A DNA stretch of 64,000 bases from Gammaproteobacteria bacterium (GCA_965221695.1 OZ244905.1:3296001-3360000); one strand, 5' to 3'; positions 16,234-61,960 are shown, counted from the first letter of the stretch. Notes: a model not told the origin generated them from the sequence alone. Made by a program: numbers and translations.

Positions 16234-17082
16234 ATGACAAGTTCAGCATATCGGGACCTGACTGCTGAAGAAATAACAACCTATCAGCAAGAGGGTGTGG
16301 CGCTGGCGCCGCAATGTGTCGACCCGGCCTGGGTGGAGCGCATGAGCAAAGCCATCGACCGTTTGCTTGCTCAGCCGAGCAAATGGGCGCAGGATACCAA
16401 CCCTGGATCTGAACAAGCGCGGTTTCTGCATGATCGGTATCTATGGCCGACCGACAAAGACTTTCGGGATTACGTATTCCATTCCGGTGTGGCCGAACTT
16501 GCTGCCCAGGCGATGCGGTCAAATACTGCGCGTATCTATTTCGATCATGTGTTTGTCAAGGAACCGGATACGCAAGAAGAGTTTTTCTGGCACCAGGATC
16601 TACCTTATTGGCCGTTCAAAGGTAAACAAATCTGTTCCGTCTGGTTGTCTTTAACAGACACCGATCTTGCTTCGAGCGGTTTGGAATTCGTGCGCGGCTC
16701 GCAAGCATGGAACAAATGGTTTAAACCGGTGTTGCCCGACGGCGGGGAAGACACCATCCAGGCCGAGTGGATCGGTTCGAGTTCGGAAGAAGAAATACCG
16801 GATTTCAATGCGTTGAGAGATGACTACGAATTCGTGTCCTTTGAGACCAGAGCGGGAGATGCGCTGATTTTCGACACAGCCATCATCCATACGTCGCATG
16901 GCAATTTGTCCCCCACAAAACGCCGCCTTGCCCTATCCACGCGCTGGCTCGGCGATGACGCCTGCTGGGACCCGCGCCCCGGCACAGACCCAATCGTCAC
17001 CCAGGAACATGTTTCCATCAGCCCCGGCGCGCCGGCCACTGACGAGAATGCTTTTCCGCTGGTATGGCAGGCCGGTAGTTAG
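16234..17082 (+). CDS. Phytanoyl-CoA dioxygenase family Fe(II)/2OG oxygenase
   Basis: WHQD, IIHTSHGN, RRLALSTRW. Confidence 0.9.
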   Translation: MTSSAYRDLTAEEITTYQQEGVALAPQCVDPAWVERMSKAIDRLLAQPSKWAQDTNPGSEQARFLHDRYLWPTDKDFRDYVFHSGVAELAAQAMRSNTARIYFDHVFVKEPDTQEEFFWHQDLPYWPFKGKQICSVWLSLTDTDLASSGLEFVRGSQAWNKWFKPVLPDGGEDTIQAEWIGSSSEEEIPDFNALRDDYEFVSFETRAGDALIFDTAIIHTSHGNLSPTKRRLALSTRWLGDDACWDPRPGTDPIVTQEHVSISPGAPATDENAFPLVWQAGS

Positions 17083-48811: not shown

Positions 48812-48832
48812 AAATGTTATGTTGTAACATGT
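48812..48832. promoter_or_regulatory. Zur box
   Basis: AAATGTTATGTTGTAACATGT resembles the proteobacterial Zur palindrome AAATGTTATA-N-TATAACATTT. Confidence 0.7.
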
Positions 48833-54677: not shown

Positions 54678-55141
54678 GAATCGGTCACGGTTATGATTCC
54701 CACAGGTTCTTGGCAGGCCGCCCACTGGTGTTGGGCGGCGTCAACGTGCCTCACGACAAGGGTTTGCAGGCGCACTCAGACGGTGATGTCGTGATCCACG
54801 CGCTGTGCGATGCGCTGCTCGGCGCGGCCGCGCTGGGTGATATCGGCGCGCATTTCCCGGATACCAGTGGGGAATTCAAAAACATCGACAGCAGAGTCCT
54901 GCTGCGGCGCACGCGCGCGTTGCTGGCGCAGAAAAGACTTGAAGTGAACAATGCCGATATCACCATCATTGCGGAAGAGCCCAAAATGGCGCCCCACATC
55001 AGCGCGATGCGGAACAACCTGTGCGCCGACCTGTCCGTAGCCGCGGACGCGGTCAATATCAAAGCAACCACCAATGAGAAAATGGGCGCCATCGGCAACT
55101 GCGAAGGCATCGCAGTACACGCAGTAGTCGCGCTAAAATAA
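54674..55141 (+). CDS. ispF: MECDP synthase
   Basis: MRIGHGYDSH, HSDGDV, GDIGAHFPD, NIKATT. Confidence 0.97.
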   Translation: MRIGHGYDSHRFLAGRPLVLGGVNVPHDKGLQAHSDGDVVIHALCDALLGAAALGDIGAHFPDTSGEFKNIDSRVLLRRTRALLAQKRLEVNNADITIIAEEPKMAPHISAMRNNLCADLSVAADAVNIKATTNEKMGAIGNCEGIAVHAVVALK

Positions 55142-55160
55142 CCCAACACTATTCCACCAC

Positions 55161-55202
55161 CAGTAAGTATTGACACATCGCTTTTAGTATCTATACTTAC
55201 TG
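55161..55202 (+). promoter_or_regulatory. Sigma70-like promoter embedded in an inverted repeat
   Basis: TTGACA 55170-55175 and TATACT 55192-55197; arms CAGTAAGTAT / ATACTTACTG are a perfect 10-bp inverted repeat. Confidence 0.65.
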
Positions 55203-55207
55203 CATAT

Positions 55208-55495
55208 ATGCGCGTTGATCAAAAACGACTACTTGCCTGGCTGCTCGGCGCCCTGGTTATATTCGGGCAGACAGCCGCGCTTGCTCACGAGTTCGACCAT
55301 GATGTACTGACAGCGCATGAATATTGCGAGCAATGCCTGACACAGTCGGTGCTCAACGGCAACGCGCTTGTCGCTGCCAATACCTGCATTACTCCGCATT
55401 CTGACGGGGCGCCAGCCGTCCCGGTTCAAAACACTTATCATTCACACCATACATCCACTTTACACGCGCGTTCCCCCCCAGTATCTCTCACATAA
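55208..55495 (+). CDS. DUF2946/CruR-like leader protein with CxxC and C-terminal RSPP motif
   Basis: Signal/TM N-terminus, HEFDH...HEYCEQC, low-complexity linker, LHARSPP near the C-terminus; directly upstream of a TonB-dependent receptor. Confidence 0.8.
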   Translation: MRVDQKRLLAWLLGALVIFGQTAALAHEFDHDVLTAHEYCEQCLTQSVLNGNALVAANTCITPHSDGAPAVPVQNTYHSHHTSTLHARSPPVSLT

Positions 55496-55593
55496 CTGAT
55501 TAAGCTGTAGGTATGAATAGCGCCCGGCGCTGTTCCAAGGAAACTCCGGTTCAACCGGAGGCTCCGAATTTTCGTATATGTGGAGATATCCAG

Positions 55594-58353
55594 ATGTTAA
55601 GAACCATTGTCCTGTTGCTCATAAGCATAGGTATTTACTGCTCACCCGCGTTTGCCGACGAGGCTCCCGGTCACGATCAATCGCCTGCCGGCGAGGATTT
55701 TATCGAGGAGATCAGGGTCACTGCCCACCCGTTGTCCGAGATCGATGAACACATCGTCCAACCTGTTCAGGTCCTGTCAGAAGAAGAACTGAAAACCCGC
55801 AGTATCAGCAACATAGGTGAAACGATTGCCAATGAACCGGGTGTGGCTTCCAGCGATTTCGGCACGGGAGCAGGCCGCCCTGTCATCCGCGGGCTGAGCG
55901 GCAGCCGGGTACAGGTGCTGGAAAATGGCCTGGGCACGATGGATATCAGCAGTTCGAGCGCGGACCACTCGGTTACCACGGAGACAGTGCTTTCTCAGCA
56001 GGTTGAGATATTTCGCGGTCCCGCGACGCTGCTGTTCGGCAGCGGCGCAAGTGGCGGCATTATCAACGTTGTGAAAGACAGAATACTCGATTATGTGCCC
56101 GATCAGGTGGAAGGCGAGGTGGCCTTGCAATATGAAACCGTTTCGGACGGCATGACCGGCGCCGGCAGTTTGAATTTCGGGATAGGTGATTTTGCGTTTC
56201 ATCTCGACGGCATGTCGCGCAATACCGATGATTACAATATCCCGGGATTTGCTGAGATGGAACCGGGTGAGTCTGAGCGGGGCACGCTGGCCAACAGCAG
56301 CAGGGACACGGAGAACATATCGGGAGGCTTGTCCTGGGTCGGTTCACGCGGCTATGCCGGCTTTTCCGTGAGCCACTATCGGAACAAGTATGGGATACCG
56401 GGACATCACCACCATCACGAAGACGAGCATGACCATCTGCACGACCTTGAAGACATGGATTTAGACGATGATCATGACCATGATGAAGATGAGCATCATG
56501 ATGATGAAGATGGCGATCATGATGAGGACGAACATCATGACGATGAAGATGGCGATCATGACCATGATGAAGATGAAAATCATGACGAGGAAGACGGCGA
56601 TCACGACCATGATGAGGATGAAAATCATGACGATGAGGACGGCGATCATGATGAGAACGAACACCATGACGATGAGGATGGTGATCTTGACCATGATGAG
56701 GACGCAGCGCAGCATAATGAGGACGAGGAGCATCACGACGAAGAAGATCATCACGATGAGGACGAAGCAAATCATAATGAGGACGATGATGATCACGACG
56801 AGGATGCAGCGCATGATGAAGATGAAGAACATCACGACGAAGATGAAGCACATGATGATGAAGACGCCGCTCAAGACCATGACGAAGAAGATGGGCATGA
56901 CGAGGAAGACGGACATGACGAAGAAGAAGGCGACCACGATCATGACGAAGAAGACGGGCATGATGAAGAAGAAGGCGACCACGATCATGACGAAGAAGAC
57001 GGGCATGATGAAGAAGATGGCGACCACGATCATGAAGAAGAAGACGGACATGACGAGGAAGACGGCGACCATGACCATGATGAAGAAGATGGGCATGACG
57101 AGGAAGAGGAAGGCGGTGTGCGCACTCACATGGAACAGACCCGCTACGATTTCGTCGCAGCCCTGAATGATCCGTTGCCCGGCTTGAGACGCGTGAAGTT
57201 ACGCTGGGGTTTTAATGATTATCAACATGATGAAATCGAACCGGGCGGCGAGATCGGCACAGCCTTTGATAACGAGGAGGTGGAAGGGCGCATCGAGTTG
57301 CTTCATGATCCCATAGGCGACTGGAGCGGCGCTGTCGGGTTCCACTACCGTCACAAAGACTTCGCGGCTGTTGGCGCGGAGAGCTATGTGCTGCCGTCGG
57401 AACTGGAGTCGTTCGGGGTTTTCATCCTGGAAAAAACCGATATCGGACGCATGCATATTGAACTGGGCGCACGCTTTGAACACCAGGATTCGAACGCAGA
57501 GACGGGCGCTAAAAATGACTATGACCTGTTCAGCGCCTCCGGTGGCCTGAGCTGGGATTATGCCCCGGGCTACCAGGTCGGCATTTCTGCCAGTCATTCA
57601 GAGAGAGCGCCGTCGATTGAGGAGTTGTATGCGCAAGGCCCGCACCTGGCGACCGCGACCTTCGAGATCGGTGACGCCAACCTGGATAAAGAGAAGTCCA
57701 ATAATGTCGATATCTACTGGCGCAAAACGACGGGCATGTTCACTGTCAGCGCCAATTTCTTCTACAACCGCATTGACGATTACATCTACAGACAGGAACA
57801 GGACCTGAACGGTGATGGTTTCGCCGACCGGGTGCCGGAAAATTTTGACGGCGACCCGGCAGATATCCTGGACCCGGAAGATGACGAGGAACCGTTGCTG
57901 GTTTACCTGAGCCAGGACGACGCCGAATTTCTGGGTTTTGAGGCGGAAACCCGGGCGCGCCTGCTGGACACTGACCAGGGTCGCATGGTGTTGCGTTTAT
58001 GGGCGGACTATGTGGAAGGCGAACGCAGCAATGATATCAACCTGCCGCGCATCACGCCCTGGCGTTTCGGTTCGGGCCTCACGTATTCACGCGGCGACCT
58101 GTATACAACCGTCAACTATACCCGCGTGAATGAGCAGGACAGCACTGCGCCGTTGGAGACGGAGACGGGCGGCTACCACCTGCTGGATATCCATGCCGAC
58201 TACACGTTCAGGCTGGGCGACAACAGGGTGACGCTGTTTGCCCGCGCTACCAACCTGCTTGATGAACAGATACGCCGGCATATTTCCTTTGTCAAAGACC
58301 AGGCGCCACTGCCAGGACGCTCCGGCATCTTCGGTATGCGTTTTGCGTTTTAG
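55594..58353 (+). CDS. ZnuD-like TonB-dependent metal receptor with large His/Asp/Glu insertion
   Basis: GGAG SD before ATG 55594; signal peptide; IEEIRVTA TonB box; GRPVIRG, RGPATLLFGSGA, ERAPSIEELYAQGPH, terminal F. Confidence 0.9.
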   Translation: MLRTIVLLLISIGIYCSPAFADEAPGHDQSPAGEDFIEEIRVTAHPLSEIDEHIVQPVQVLSEEELKTRSISNIGETIANEPGVASSDFGTGAGRPVIRGLSGSRVQVLENGLGTMDISSSSADHSVTTETVLSQQVEIFRGPATLLFGSGASGGIINVVKDRILDYVPDQVEGEVALQYETVSDGMTGAGSLNFGIGDFAFHLDGMSRNTDDYNIPGFAEMEPGESERGTLANSSRDTENISGGLSWVGSRGYAGFSVSHYRNKYGIPGHHHHHEDEHDHLHDLEDMDLDDDHDHDEDEHHDDEDGDHDEDEHHDDEDGDHDHDEDENHDEEDGDHDHDEDENHDDEDGDHDENEHHDDEDGDLDHDEDAAQHNEDEEHHDEEDHHDEDEANHNEDDDDHDEDAAHDEDEEHHDEDEAHDDEDAAQDHDEEDGHDEEDGHDEEEGDHDHDEEDGHDEEEGDHDHDEEDGHDEEDGDHDHEEEDGHDEEDGDHDHDEEDGHDEEEEGGVRTHMEQTRYDFVAALNDPLPGLRRVKLRWGFNDYQHDEIEPGGEIGTAFDNEEVEGRIELLHDPIGDWSGAVGFHYRHKDFAAVGAESYVLPSELESFGVFILEKTDIGRMHIELGARFEHQDSNAETGAKNDYDLFSASGGLSWDYAPGYQVGISASHSERAPSIEELYAQGPHLATATFEIGDANLDKEKSNNVDIYWRKTTGMFTVSANFFYNRIDDYIYRQEQDLNGDGFADRVPENFDGDPADILDPEDDEEPLLVYLSQDDAEFLGFEAETRARLLDTDQGRMVLRLWADYVEGERSNDINLPRITPWRFGSGLTYSRGDLYTTVNYTRVNEQDSTAPLETETGGYHLLDIHADYTFRLGDNRVTLFARATNLLDEQIRRHISFVKDQAPLPGRSGIFGMRFAF
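56404..57111 (+). repeat. Coding low-complexity tandem repeats (H/D/E)
   Basis: Includes four 45-bp units at about 56914-57093 encoding HDEE(E/D)GDHDH(D/E)EEDG. Confidence 0.95.
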
Positions 58354-58809: not shown

Positions 58810-59640
58810 GTGGAATATTCTGACTCTTTATTACTGCTGGCGGGATATTCCGTCGCAATCATAGCCGGTTCCCTGTTGGGTGGATGGCTGCCGTCCGTAT
58901 TTCGGATGACCCATACCCGTATCCAGATGGCGATGACTTTTGTCGCGGGCCTGATTCTCGGGGTCGCCATCTACCACCTGCTGCCCTACAGTTTGCAGGT
59001 GTTCCCCGGCGAACATGCCGTTGAAACCGTCGCATCATGGATGATACTGGGCATTGTGGTGATGGTATTGATGTTGCGCTTCTTCCACTTTCACCAGCAT
59101 GATTTCAGTGATGTGGACCAGAATAACCACGCCCCTTCAAATCACGACACGGTCGCAGCGCACCCGGTCAGTTGGTTCGGTATCGCCCTGGGGCTGGGCT
59201 TGCACTCGCTGACCGAAGGAATCGCGCTGGGCAGTAGCCTGCGGGTCGGCCTGTCCCATGAAGGCATGGGTAGTCTGGCAGGATTTGGCGTTTTCCTGGC
59301 GATACTATCGCACAAGCCGCTTGACGCGCTCTCCATTACCGGCACGATGCAGGCCGCGGGATTGAGCTGGCGTCTGCGCATGTTGGCCAATGTGCTGTTT
59401 GCACTGATATGCCCGATGGTGGCTTTTCTTACTTTCTGGGGCGTGGGACTGCTTGGTGCGGAGGGGCCACTGGTGATCGGTTGTGCACTGGCTTTCGCAG
59501 CCGGCGCGTTCCTGTGTATTGCCCTGAGCGACCTGTTGCCCGAATTTCATTTCCACCGCCATGACCGTATCAAGCTCACACTGTCCTTCCTCACAGGAGT
59601 CGGCTTGATCTTCATCCTTCACTACCTCGAATCCGGCTAG
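58810..59640 (+). CDS. ZIP family metal transporter
   Basis: His loop HFHQHD, TM4 LHSLTEG, TM5 SHKPLD, SDLLPE. Confidence 0.9.
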   Translation: MEYSDSLLLLAGYSVAIIAGSLLGGWLPSVFRMTHTRIQMAMTFVAGLILGVAIYHLLPYSLQVFPGEHAVETVASWMILGIVVMVLMLRFFHFHQHDFSDVDQNNHAPSNHDTVAAHPVSWFGIALGLGLHSLTEGIALGSSLRVGLSHEGMGSLAGFGVFLAILSHKPLDALSITGTMQAAGLSWRLRMLANVLFALICPMVAFLTFWGVGLLGAEGPLVIGCALAFAAGAFLCIALSDLLPEFHFHRHDRIKLTLSFLTGVGLIFILHYLESG

Positions 59641-59662: not shown

Positions 59663-60640
59663 TTAATTTCCCGGAATCAACGAATCAGGAATGTCATAAA
59701 AGCCGGGGGCGTGTTCCAGGATCAAATCCTTGATGACGCGGGCGCTGGTATGCATATGTGAATAGGGTGAGCAGCACAGCGTGATAGTGCGTATGATCCG
59801 GTAACCCTCCACGCGTCTGAAGTCGATCTTATCGGTGGGTTCATGATCGATAACAGCACAATGCGGGACAAACGAACAACCCACTCCCGATTGCACAAGA
59901 TCCAGGCAAAGTTCCGGCGAGTCGGTGCGCGCAATATGCTGAAGTTGGATTTCATGTTCATTAGCCAGCCATTCGATATTTCTGGTGATTGCGTGATGTT
60001 TGGGAGTGGATATCAACCTGGCGCTGGCCAGAGCATTGATCGGCACCGTGGTCTCGTCCGAGCCGGCAATGTCGTACAACTCTCTTGCCGAGCAAAAAAA
60101 GACTTCTTCTTCAAACAACTTGTAATATTCAAGAGTGCTCGAGGAGAATAAATATTCGGTGTGCAGCGTGGCCTGATCTTTGCGGACTGAAATATCCTTG
60201 TGCAGAATGGCCATATCGATGCCGGAATGGGATAACTGGTTATACAGGTCTTTGCTGTCCCCGGAGAGGAACTCTATTTCGATATTCGGATATTGCTCAT
60301 GTATTTTTCTGAACAGTCCAAGTCCAAGAAACCGCGCCAGGCTTTTTTGAAAGCCCAGGACAATAGTACCGACCGGGCGCGAGACTTCCTGCTTGATTTC
60401 ATCCAGCGCCTCGTTTGCTGACTTGACTATATTCTTGGCATGGGAATAAAGTCGCTGCCCGGCGTCGGTTAAGGTAACGCCTTGTCGTGAACGAACAAAC
60501 AGCTTTACCCCCAATTCGCTTTCCAACGCAGACAGCCGGTTGCTCAGCGCCGGTTGGGCGATATAAATCTGTTCCGCGGCGCGGGTGATACTCCCCGCGT
60601 CGGCGATGGCGATCAGCGCGCTCAGGTGTTTGATATCCAT
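59663..60640 (-). CDS. LysR family transcriptional regulator
   Basis: GSITRAAEQIYIAQPALS...LESELGVKLFVR. Confidence 0.93.
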   Translation of the reverse strand: MDIKHLSALIAIADAGSITRAAEQIYIAQPALSNRLSALESELGVKLFVRSRQGVTLTDAGQRLYSHAKNIVKSANEALDEIKQEVSRPVGTIVLGFQKSLARFLGLGLFRKIHEQYPNIEIEFLSGDSKDLYNQLSHSGIDMAILHKDISVRKDQATLHTEYLFSSSTLEYYKLFEEEVFFCSARELYDIAGSDETTVPINALASARLISTPKHHAITRNIEWLANEHEIQLQHIARTDSPELCLDLVQSGVGCSFVPHCAVIDHEPTDKIDFRRVEGYRIIRTITLCCSPYSHMHTSARVIKDLILEHAPGFYDIPDSLIPGN

Positions 60641-61960
60641 TCAGGCTATTTTACCCGGAAGATAAAGCGCTATTCCAGGAAATAAAGCAATGAGCGCGAT
60701 TGCCAGCATCATCAGCAAAACGTAGGGCAGGGCGCCATAGACCACATCGGAGAATTGTGCCCGGGCGGCGCCTTTGATAACCATCAGGTTCAGTCCCACC
60801 GGGGGCGAAATCAACGACATTTCCAGGTTGATCACCAACAAAATGCCGTACCACATCCGATCGATACCGAGCAGGTCCAGCGCCGGCAGTATCAGCGGTG
60901 TGGTCACCAGGGTAATCGAGGCGCCCTCCAAAAACATGCCCATAATGAAGATAAGCGCCATTAAACCCAACAGGAACACGAGCGCGTCCAATTCCATGGA
61001 AATTACCCATTCGAGCAATTGCAATGGGATTTCGGTAATAACGATAACATGCCCGAATAACGCTGCGCCGGCGACGATGGCAAACACCAAACCGGCGTTT
61101 TCCGCGGCTTTTTTCGCAGCCAGGTGGCAACCTTTCAGCGTCAGTTGCCGGTACACACAAGTCGCCAGCAGCATCGATAAGACCACGCCGACAGCCCCCG
61201 CCTCAGAAGGCGTAAACACCCCGCTGTACAAGCCGCCAATAATCAACACCGGCAGTAATGCAACCATGCTGACTTTGAATTTTCCGGTACTCCCAGAGGT
61301 ATCGTCGTTCCCGGGTTCGGACTGATCCGGCGAAGTCTGCAGTTCATCGGCTGGCTCCCCCGCGCTGGGCTGCAAGGACAGTTGCAGGCGGTCATACAGG
61401 CAGAACAAGCTGATCAGCAGCAGCGCCGGGAGCAATGCGGCGATAAACAAACCGCTGATCGACACATCGGCGATGATTCCGTAAACGATCAATGCAATAG
61501 ATGGCGGGATCAGTATTCCCAAGGTACCGGATGCTGCGACCAGGCCATACGCGCTCCGTTTGGAATAACCATGTTTGAGCATTTGCGGAATGGACACATC
61601 GCTTAATGTGACAGCGGTGGCAACCGAAGACCCTGAAACCGCAGAAAAAACCGTTGCCACGCCGAGCGTGGTAGCGCCGGCGCTGTTTTTGATATTGCCT
61701 GCGATACGGTTGACAGTATTGTAAACATCCTGCAGTGCATTCGTTCTGATCAGGATTTGGGCCATGTAGGCAAACAGCGGAATGGCGACAAACGCATAGG
61801 TATCCAGCCTGGCAAAAATGATGTCCGCAATGTGCTCAATACCCGCCGGCCCTTCCATGGCCAGCAGCGCCACTACTGAAGTGATACTCAAGGCGACAAA
61901 TACCGGCACGCCCGCTGCCAGCAGAAAAAGGAGAAACAGTATCAGCAACAGCTCACTCAT
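60641..61960 (-). CDS. TRAP transporter large permease (DctM)
   Basis: AIPLF, SGSSVATA, GTLGILIPPS, FTPSEAG, ISPPVGLNL. Confidence 0.93.
   Translation of the reverse strand: MSELLLILFLLFLLAAGVPVFVALSITSVVALLAMEGPAGIEHIADIIFARLDTYAFVAIPLFAYMAQILIRTNALQDVYNTVNRIAGNIKNSAGATTLGVATVFSAVSGSSVATAVTLSDVSIPQMLKHGYSKRSAYGLVAASGTLGILIPPSIALIVYGIIADVSISGLFIAALLPALLLISLFCLYDRLQLSLQPSAGEPADELQTSPDQSEPGNDDTSGSTGKFKVSMVALLPVLIIGGLYSGVFTPSEAGAVGVVLSMLLATCVYRQLTLKGCHLAAKKAAENAGLVFAIVAGAALFGHVIVITEIPLQLLEWVISMELDALVFLLGLMALIFIMGMFLEGASITLVTTPLILPALDLLGIDRMWYGILLVINLEMSLISPPVGLNLMVIKGAARAQFSDVVYGALPYVLLMMLAIALIALFPGIALYLPGKIA

Follow-up and report, generated by a model that had tools for sequence, protein, structure and literature searches.

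A small open reading frame (ORF) at positions 55208-55495 of a 64,000-nucleotide (nt) stretch of DNA from a Gammaproteobacteria bacterium (GCA_965221695.1, OZ244905.1:3296001-3360000; in the following, the window) precedes the gene of a ZnuD-type TonB-dependent receptor. We found that this ORF is a real conserved gene of a large family, and that in most members of this family the leader RNA from the second proline codon of a C-terminal R-x-P-P (RxPP) motif to the stop codon pairs with the Shine-Dalgarno (SD) region of the next gene. We hold with good confidence that the ORF is an arrest-type regulatory leader, and we consider it moderately likely that it is a leader of the kind represented by CruR and CutF, which would set the translation of the receptor gene that follows it.

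The leader and its family

The leader ORF encodes 95 amino acids (aa). Its N-terminal sequence, MRVDQKRLLAWLLGALVIFGQTAALA (residues 1-26), contains K6/R7, a hydrophobic stretch (residues 8-23) and the residues ALA preceding H27; this segment is conserved among the 32 copies of the genus described below and resembles a signal peptide. It is followed by H27-EFD-H31-DVLTA-H37-EY-C40-EQ-C43, by a linker with five extra histidines (positions 64, 78, 80, 81 and 86) and by RSPP, behind which only VSLT and the stop codon TAA (55493-55495) remain. A first-pass annotation of the window had described an export-type N-terminus, the segment HEFDH-x5-HEYCEQC, a His-bearing linker and RSPP four codons ahead of the stop; all of these parts were found again, RSPP at 55469-55480, the N-terminus being signal-peptide-like. 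The arrest of CruR places its two proline codons in the P and A sites of the ribosome (PMC12992588), and by analogy with the CruR toeprint P90 would occupy the P site and P91 the A site at the candidate arrest. An AlphaFold2 model of the leader consists of two helices (residues 5-33 and 41-51) and about 45 residues of coil without a compact fold (mean predicted local distance difference test, pLDDT, 81.5; predicted template modelling score, pTM, 0.42), a picture more in keeping with a leader than with a folded protein.

In a six-frame search that covered 60 related genomes, 18 of the 22 further genomes of the genus gave a full-length match to the leader at an expectation value (E) <=2e-11, and many of these carry two to six leader copies lying a few kilobases apart. 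From 20 larger loci we extracted 32 leader copies, the one of the window included. All are 95-100 aa long and end with RSPP (24 copies) or RAPP (8 copies), and they share the invariant residues M1, W11, L16, Q21, H27, C40, C43, L44, Q46, R88, P90 and P91. A profile of these 32 copies searched against 1.84 billion representative sequences identified 241 proteins at E<=1e-3, nearly all with a length of 90-110 aa and an end-to-end match. For a wider alignment, the window protein was combined with 123 of the 150 listed hits, 27 with atypical length or partial match having been omitted beforehand. Within these 124 sequences H27, R88, P90 and P91 are invariant and C40/C43 are conserved to at least 90%, at a mean column identity of 22%; the arrest-type motif is RAPP in 90, RGPP in 22, RSPP in 11 and RDPP in one. 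The distance between CxxC and RxPP is 43-45 residues (44 in the window) in 116 of the 118 sequences which have a CxxC motif, with two outliers, six of the 124 being without CxxC, and the number of residues after RxPP ranges from 1 to 11, three being the commonest. Judged from these alignments, the family appears to keep only an N-terminal hydrophobic segment, one histidine, CxxC, the spacer of 43-45 residues and R(A/G/S)PP near the stop codon. When 401 genomes from across the phylum were scanned with a profile, the family was present in 21 of them and in 20 of 212 genera. A word-indexed homologue search with the leader, which yielded no candidates, was superseded by these genome and profile searches, and a related-locus search from the 32-row alignment returned only the same genus-level loci.

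The architecture of the leader resembles that of CruR (Bp2923 of Bordetella pertussis, the prototype of DUF2946), for which either a signal peptide or an N-in/C-out transmembrane segment as export signal, CXXC, a distance of 45 residues that varies by no more than one or two, and RAPP three residues from the end were described (Roy et al. 2022, PMC9426467). In the window ORF, CXXC is C40-E-Q-C43, the spacing is 44, and RSPP instead of RAPP is followed by four residues. Genes of the CruR family stand first in operons which often hold a TonB-dependent transporter (PMC9426467). The window leader likewise has a promoter directly upstream and the receptor start 98 nt downstream. Among the 32 genus copies, an ORF of 696-980 aa lies within 200 nt after the leader in 28, the four of these ORFs that were scanned being receptors, and tblastn found relatives of the window receptor in 20 of 20 related loci, with a marginal match in L040 (E 8e-6). 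Concerning the motif itself, Ala-to-Ser variants of ApdA and ApdP were reported to be partially arrest-competent, and RSPP was recovered as an arrest sequence from random screens (EMBO J 2025, PMC12992588).

Pairing of the leader end with the downstream SD region

In the window, the last four sense codons of the leader together with part of its stop codon (55482-55494) are complementary to a segment (55577-55588) which contains GGAG 8 nt ahead of the receptor ATG at 55594. The 12 base pairs with one bulge which had been proposed from the first inspection of the window were thus found as described. Throughout the genus copies we recognised a common module: RxPP is directly followed by GATATCTCCCGCATAA, comprising the last codons and the stop, then by a short linker, the hairpin GAATAACGCCCGGCGTTATTC, a further linker, TTATGTGGAGGTATCC, 3-5 nt and ATG. 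The elements GATATCTCCCGCATAA and TTATGTGGAGGTATCC can form 15 pairs with one bulge. On 22 aligned spacers 85.9% of the cells of this helix are paired, compared with 37-50% when the partner columns are slid by 1-3 positions, and in four of its 15 pairs both partners change; the covariation check suggested earlier for orthologous loci revealed a conserved pairing with some compensatory change. For the inner hairpin (55515-55535 type) 95-97% of the cells are paired in the same spacers, with two compensatory pairs. This hairpin is unique in the genome and is therefore not a dispersed repeat. It is also the family-wide inner hairpin: the loop-shortening hairpin named in the first-pass annotation does exist at 55544-55560, but it occurs only in the window copy and in its nearest relative.

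Minimum-energy folding of 31 genus copies (the 32nd, having no recognisable receptor start, was left unfolded) gave at least ten anti-SD:SD pairs in 24, and RNAalifold, applied to 12 compact copies, predicted the helix around the inner hairpin unprompted. In copies whose stop codon lies 9-15 nt further on, the anti-SD sequence still stands directly behind the Pro-Pro codons. Since its placement follows Pro-Pro even where the stop shifts, the anti-SD segment is tied to the stall site and not to termination. A comparison of cognate with non-cognate duplex energies provided no discrimination, most genus copies being alike.

The same arrangement was found in sequences unrelated to that of the window. 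A scan of the phylum provided 22 loci in other genera, 17 with the motif by a strict pattern and three more with variants, and the 16 distant loci with a clear downstream gene were tested by comparing the segment from the first proline codon to 6 nt past the stop with the 25 nt ending at the downstream start codon. The pairing beats at least 96.4% of the same-length windows of the locus in 12 of 16 and ranks within the top 1.2% in nine; a fold with at least eight such pairs was obtained for 14 of 16. Examples of these duplexes are CCUUAAUUCC with GGAAUUAAGG and UUUCUCCUGA with UCAGGAGAA.

To model the effect of a stalled ribosome, base pairing of the mRNA was forbidden as far as 15 nt beyond the first base of the P-site proline codon, this reach of the ribosome on mRNA being established, and the energy cost of opening the receptor start from position -14 to +3 was calculated. 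For the 31 genus copies the median opening energy was 12.9 kcal/mol for free mRNA, 12.6 kcal/mol with a ribosome placed further upstream and 6.5 kcal/mol with the ribosome stalled at RxPP, and the stall mask lowered the opening energy by at least 5 kcal/mol in 22 of the 31.

Target genes, proposed mechanism and competing explanations

The best NCBIfam match of the receptor is ZnuD (NF038289) with 425.6 bits compared with a cut-off of 950 bits, and ZnuD (4rdr) is also its sole solved-structure match at E<=1e-10; because the score lies below the cut-off, we call the receptor ZnuD-type and do not assign it as ZnuD. An insert of about 240 residues (56401-57117 of the window) is built nearly throughout from repeats of His, Asp, Glu and Gly. 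The alignment of relatives is confined to residues 1-269 and 509-919, and the insert varies in length and sequence between paralogues. Downstream of the receptor lies a ZIP gene, whose protein matches ZupT at 1.8e-10, below the cut-off, and ZIP homologues follow the receptor in 10 of the 20 related loci (tblastn). ORFs of 281 aa behind the receptors of relatives were considered as ZIP genes and rejected, being unrelated to the ZIP protein by BLASTP. The target had been given in the earlier reading as a ZnuD-type receptor beside a ZIP gene: the type and the neighbour stand, and the assignment to ZnuD itself falls below its cut-off.

Downstream of the 16 distant leaders we identified a receptor in six loci, ZrgA in one, a weak porin-family match in two and no family match in seven. 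All six distant receptors have ZnuD as best NCBIfam match (E 3e-68 to 2e-98, partial sequences), and the ZrgA zinc-uptake gene headed by one distant leader matches at 2e-48. For one of the seven unmatched proteins the ESM Atlas led to Porin_O_P-like clusters only. A CobW/COG0523 gene is present in one paralogue cluster of the genus. Altogether the gene context points to zinc rather than copper, in line with the Zn/Ni/Co-responsive variant suggested beforehand; zinc is in our view the most likely metal, a choice which we make tentatively.

Some paralogous loci deserve a separate description. In L035 (copy at 16270), L033 (1975) and L039 (16953), the leader and the usual SD are followed by a stub of 29-35 codons, which resembles a receptor signal peptide plus ETSGHA-H/R and then stops; behind the stub, L035 carries a CbiM-type transporter and an ATP-binding cassette (ABC) ATPase, and L033 and L039 carry ORFs of matching sizes. 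The stub could represent a second small ORF, or else what remains of a receptor that was replaced. In L034 (831-3357), two overlapping ORFs of 378 and 560 aa take the place of an intact receptor frame behind one leader, owing to a frameshift or an assembly error, and the spacer of L034 holds about 150 nt of extra hairpins. The genome of the window itself contains a second leader-like ORF of 107 aa (L102 1492-1815; G000:C1 ~1498948-1499271) with a hydrophobic N-terminus, AH...H.H...C and the end RPPPTGPP plus 12 residues; 103 nt behind it starts an ORF whose sequence looks TonB-receptor-like by eye.

In the proposed mechanism the leader would be translated from a near-leaderless transcript until the ribosome arrests with both proline codons of RSPP in the P and A sites. 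The arrested ribosome would cover about 55475-55490 and hold the anti-SD segment (55482-55494) single-stranded, the receptor SD would be freed, and 30S subunits would start at ATG 55594. The His/Cys segment would then stand just outside the exit tunnel, because it lies 47-63 residues from the P site. When metal is sufficient, this segment would bind it, fold and pull the arrest open; after release, the ribosome would terminate and leave, the helix would re-form and the receptor would be switched off, and Rho-dependent polarity on the untranslated message may follow. The best reading is in our opinion a CruR-like sensor combined with a CutF-like output. That metal relieves rather than causes the stall is probable, and SD sequestration seems on balance to be the main output. 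With considerably less certainty, one can speculate that the leaders are zinc-sensing nascent chains of an unnamed family of at least 241 clusters at 50% identity: a His/Cys mini-domain at a fixed distance of 43-45 residues would fold on Zn2+ while emerging from the ribosome and open the RxPP arrest, the last codons would serve as anti-SD of ZnuD-type receptors, ZrgA or porin-like channels, and zinc uptake across the outer membrane would be set translationally, for each cell and each message, without or atop Zur.

Metal-driven release of an arrest by force is physically possible and depends on tether length, since SecM arrest is lost when the ADR1a zinc finger folds with Zn2+, at a tether length which is sharply defined (Nilsson et al. 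2015, PMC4571824). As in that construct, a small segment (His2Cys2 in ADR1a) would stand near the tunnel, and the fixed 43-45 spacer of the family would act as the ruler. The ADR1a-SecM sensor is artificial and has a tether of 24-26 residues inside the tunnel, whereas about 47 residues separate C43 from the P-site proline in the window leader, where the ligand order is His...His...CxxC and both folding and zinc binding are putative. ApdA, ApdP and SecM (RAGP), which monitor Sec/YidC, would share with the leader a C-terminal arrest motif of the R-x-P-P type, an N-terminal localisation signal and control of a downstream gene by the position of the stalled ribosome; they sense the export machinery, whereas the His/Cys segment and the cargo genes of the window leader point to metal.

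Closer relatives in function are CruR and CutF. Common to CruR and the leader are CXXC and, about 45 residues behind it and close to the stop, R-x-P-P, together with a putative export signal and the expected logic that metal relieves the stall and uptake is turned off. CruR differs by its length of 145 aa, by RAPP, by acting via Rho in a spacer of 162 nt and by its target, the copper transporter CrtA (PMC9426467); the leader of the window type has an invariant histidine 12 residues ahead of CxxC, a spacer of 42-105 nt in most copies with the SD buried by its own last codons, and a receptor among whose solved-structure matches at E<=1e-10 CrtA is not found. CutF of Rhodobacter capsulatus (PMC9973294; 10.1101/2025.02.05.636593), a leader which is exported, likewise combines a Cys motif with a proline-rich end, and the SD of the gene behind it is shielded by an mRNA stem-loop, which the stalled ribosome melts. 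CutF carries CxxxC and PPP and depends on elongation factor P (EF-P); its target is a detoxifying oxidase and copper switches it on, whereas the window leader carries CxxC and RSPP in place of the CutF motifs, targets importers and contains the anti-SD inside its own last codons.

Small proteins with RAPP or RGPP before TonB receptor genes were surveyed across Gram-negative bacteria and are widespread among them (PMC12992588). They too combine a C-terminal RAPP-like motif with a signal sequence and a downstream TonB receptor, and many members of the family described here (RAPP 90 and RGPP 22 of 124) would fall into that class; RSPP copies such as that of the window lie outside an RAPP/RGPP search. 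In the survey, which groups the receptors as metal- or copper-related, we found neither a ZnuD link nor a conserved His/CxxC ruler or an SD-sequestering helix; zinc has no occurrence in it, and its supplements and source data may list these proteins. The words zinc and ZnuD are likewise absent from the main text of the CruR paper (PMC9426467), and zinc from that of the CutF paper (PMC9973294), both of which have supplementary tables that may list such neighbours. The two papers found to name CruR, zinc and TonB together concern copper.

Already known are thus the characterised leaders CruR and CutF and the catalogued RAPP/RGPP upstream ORFs before TonB receptors (PMC12992588). What the alignments and loci analysed here appear to add is a large branch beyond the Pfam model with a fixed His...CxxC...RxPP ruler, an anti-SD in the last codons of the leader which recurs in unrelated sequences, and a consistent link to ZnuD, ZrgA and ZIP instead of copper genes. 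Because the family is missed by the Pfam model on which published censuses relied, the numbers of such leaders given there are probably too low and the share ascribed to copper too high. To our knowledge, metal-sensing arrest leaders have been demonstrated by experiment for copper only, namely CruR and CutF. If the branch senses zinc, a post-transcriptional layer would be added to zinc uptake, which textbooks assign to Zur. With its 95 codons, fixed spacer and three to four ligand residues, the leader would then also be a small natural system for the study of ligand-driven folding at the tunnel exit which releases an RxPP arrest, a natural counterpart of the engineered ADR1a-SecM force sensor. 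Stall site, anti-SD and stop are packed into about 27 nt, an arrangement which recurs with unrelated sequences in other genera, and this design may aid the annotation and the prediction of regulation of outer-membrane importers, with its greatest use in uncultured bacteria, which are beyond the reach of genetics.

Several results weigh against the reading of the ORF as a metal-responsive leader with an SD switch, and the first of them concern the window copy. Its duplex amounts to -15.8 kcal/mol, a value which 0.49% of 20,000 20-mers drawn at random from the genome also reach with the SD segment, so that a match of this kind is no rarity within about 100 nt and the window pairing alone is not beyond chance; it is the conservation across copies which makes the pairing more than chance. 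Folding of 55460-55600, named beforehand as a check of the helix, gave a minimum-energy structure in which the anti-SD/SD helix is absent and other pairs are used. The fold with the helix enforced reaches -43.9 kcal/mol compared with -45.8 kcal/mol for the free minimum, the long helix being nearly isoenergetic with a local hairpin at 55571-55603, and in the ensemble the SD pairs with the 3' end of the leader at a probability of 0.63. The arrangement of an SD switch of the CutF type is seen at the family level, and in the window copy the helix exists but is matched by the local hairpin. Under the stall mask the opening energy of the window copy changes from 9.7 to 10.0 kcal/mol, so that no opening is predicted, and that of a 96%-identical relative from 10.3 to 10.0 kcal/mol, because in both the local hairpin (-9.2 kcal/mol) takes over. 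The earlier statement that a stalled ribosome frees the receptor SD thus agrees with the family model and not with that of the window copy.

In these models the design is clear for the family and the window copy is its weakest case: the small hairpin is overcome there by kinetics and the 30S subunit, or else the switch is damped or decayed. Decay, with the local hairpin keeping the receptor poorly translated and only other paralogues functional, seems to us rather improbable. It would agree with the unmoved opening energies of the two copies, as opposed to the drop by at least 5 kcal/mol in most others, with the strength of the local hairpin at the ribosome binding site, and with the extra inserted hairpin which both copies carry; yet leader ORF, RSPP, anti-SD and promoter are intact and conserved between the window genome and the 96%-identical relative, a weaker core of the local hairpin, with conserved GGA/UCC pairs, is found family-wide, and thermodynamic models ignore co-transcriptional folding and the opening of small hairpins by the 30S subunit.

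Among the adverse results for the wider set, the helix is absent from the minimum-energy fold of seven of the 31 genus copies, and RNAalifold, given the gappy 22-row alignment, predicted no long helix and found only part of the inner hairpin and the local GGA/UCC hairpin. Counts over genus copies are not independent events since the copies are related, and the high conservation of the helix leaves few compensatory changes. Four of the 16 distant loci are unremarkable in duplex rank, their downstream starts were picked by eye from signal-peptide-like N-termini, and proline codons, being C-rich, tend to complement an SD anyway. For three true DUF2946 loci the duplex ranks obtained in this way were 0.05-0.13, too few loci and too weak a signal to speak for a general SD sequestration in DUF2946.

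Membership in DUF2946 was likewise at issue, as a profile search against this family had been suggested as a check. The Pfam model (PF11162, gathering score 23.7 bits) does not match the window ORF even at E<=10, and a six-frame genome scan with DUF2946 gave no hit at the leader position. DUF2946 is nevertheless the commonest weak Pfam match, obtained for three of the 32 genus copies (best E 0.051) and for 21 of the 124 wider members at E<=0.01 (best 9.2e-6). True DUF2946 proteins are present in only three of 151 genomes of the class; when these three were compared with the family by hhalign, just 17 N-terminal columns aligned, with a probability of 42%. We therefore treat the window leader as a putative sister branch at the edge of DUF2946, CruR-like in its sequence features and a non-member by the Pfam test, so that the CruR/CutF-type reading keeps the hallmarks CXXC, a spacing of 44 and R-x-P-P near the end, and loses the Pfam assignment. 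RSPP was described as only partially permissive for arrest in the text of the survey cited above (PMC12992588). All ZnuD matches, of the window and of the distant loci, lie under the family cut-off, and the stall, the metal response and the effect on the receptor are all predictions from sequence analysis. CxxC is moreover a classic Cu(I) site. Within the genus, paralogous leaders stand ahead of a CbiM-type (Co/Ni) transporter with an ABC ATPase, and also ahead of a receptor and PepSY_TM, a pair which resembles the copper operon of Bordetella.

These last points bear on the metal, and it is possible, although we would not favour it, that the same mechanism serves copper, as in CruR and CutF, or cobalt or nickel. 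CxxC is the copper-sensing motif of CruR (PMC9426467), and Ni/Co was already suggested for some CutF-like clusters (Ozturk et al., PMC9973294), which together with the CbiM-type and PepSY_TM paralogues would suit another metal. The directly controlled gene is, however, ZnuD-type here and in all six distant receptor loci, ZIP and ZrgA are zinc-uptake families, and the invariant extra H27 would give a His/Cys ligand set typical of zinc sites. A polarity opposite to the proposed one, with metal causing or prolonging the stall and so turning the downstream gene on, is quite unlikely. CutF does contain the same parts, an exported Cys motif, a proline-rich end and an SD-shielding stem-loop, and its stalling is induced by copper (PMC9973294); but CutF controls a detoxifying oxidase, whereas the genes controlled here encode importers (receptor, ZIP, ZrgA and porin-like channels), whose induction in metal excess would, on physiological grounds, be harmful.

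Concerning the output, we consider it unlikely that the leader stalls but acts mainly through Rho-dependent termination in the 98-nt spacer, with SD pairing being secondary or reinforcing. CruR, the closest characterised relative, which also precedes a TonB-dependent transporter, works via Rho (PMC9426467), an SD-blocked untranslated receptor message would be open to Rho in any case, and no intrinsic terminator was found on the plus strand of the 98-nt spacer. The conserved feature of the spacers is nevertheless the SD-burying helix and not long unstructured C-rich tracts, and many spacers measure only 42-68 nt compared with 162 nt in B. pertussis (PMC9426467). Least probable of all, and very doubtful in our view, is that the ORF encodes a working exported small metal-binding protein, for example a periplasmic chaperone for the receptor, and that the SD pairing reflects ordinary translational coupling. 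The signal-peptide-like N-terminus, the His/Cys ligands and the mean pLDDT of the AlphaFold2 model would agree with such a protein, whereas that same model has just its two helices and the coil, and the sequence is free to vary outside the N-terminus, one histidine, CxxC and RxPP, as the mean column identity illustrates. The strict spacing of 43-45 residues to a C-terminal RxPP, a motif reported to be strongly avoided in proteomes (PMC12992588), is expected of a tunnel-length ruler and is hard to explain for a mature protein.

Transcription of the leader and features of the locus

A sigma-70-type promoter ends 10 nt ahead of the leader ATG, with no SD between (Table 1). A comparable promoter ends 8-10 nt before the ATG in 18 of the 32 genus copies, and an SD-like tetramer at -16 to -4 of the leader ATG is present in only one of the 32. 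The leader mRNA is probably leaderless or nearly so, because the promoter adjoins the ATG and an SD is absent, and translation would presumably begin on such a message, with the transcription start deduced from the promoter position. Promoter spacers of the paralogues share no common operator, and Rfam gave no match at E<=1 in 54800-56000.

ZnuD receptors are classically controlled at the level of transcription by a Zur operator. The window receptor resembles them by its type and its His-rich loop and differs in that a Zur-box consensus finds no match within 6 kb of the leader, in agreement with the earlier remark that no Zur box is visible nearby. The sole match of this consensus in the window, at 48815, contains two mismatches, and 39 of 100 shuffled sequences yield such a match by chance. 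The genome holds two Fur-family genes.

A perfect 10-bp inverted repeat, CAGTAAGTAT / ATACTTACTG (55162-55202), flanks the leader promoter on both sides, and an inner palindrome, AGTAT-CT-ATACT, overlaps its -10 element; the repeat could be an operator for some repressor. Its left arm differs in the 96%-identical relative. In L081, a locus from another genus of the same family, with a leader heading a ZnuD-type receptor, a near-palindrome, TGTAATGTTATAATATTACA, lies about 45 nt upstream of the leader ATG and overlaps the promoter. This near-palindrome resembles the Zur-box consensus, which hints at stacked control by Zur and the leader in L081.

Table 1. Positions of the leader, its RNA elements and the adjoining genes in the window
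Feature	Position	Strand	Remarks
Sigma-70-type promoter TTGACA-16-TATACT	55170-55197	+	11 of 12 consensus matches
Leader ORF, CruR/CutF-like candidate arrest peptide	55208-55495	+	95 aa, then stop; conserved in the genus and in 241 representative clusters
Signal-peptide-like segment, residues 1-26	55208-55285	+	Basic N-region, hydrophobic core, ALA ahead of H27
Candidate metal-binding segment H27-x3-H31-x5-H37-x2-C40-x2-C43	55286-55336	+	H27, C40 and C43 conserved; putative binding
RSPP, candidate ribosome-arrest motif, residues 88-91	55469-55480	+	R88, P90 and P91 invariant
Anti-SD segment, last four sense codons of the leader and part of the stop	55482-55494	+	TATCTC-T-CACATA = TATCTCTCACATA
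Family-conserved hairpin GAATAGCGCCCGGCGCTGTTC	55515-55535	+	GAATAGCGC-CCG-GCGCTGTTC; within the loop closed by the long helix
Second hairpin CTCCGGT-TCA-ACCGGAG	55544-55560	+	Only in the window copy and its nearest relative
Competing local hairpin over SD and start codon	55571-55603	+	-9.2 kcal/mol folded alone
Anti-SD partner TATGTGGAGATA	55577-55588	+	Receptor SD GGAG at 55582-55585; complement bar one bulged base
TonB-dependent receptor, ZnuD type	55594-58353	+	Plug and barrel; start MLRTIVLLL..., signal-peptide-like
ZIP-family metal importer, ZupT-like	58810-59640	+	PF02535, 82.4 bits (cut-off 35.1), 4.7e-23

Beyond the ZIP gene and convergent with it, the minus strand of the window (59663-61960) carries a LysR-family regulator and a large membrane protein of 439 aa, for which no link to the leader was seen.

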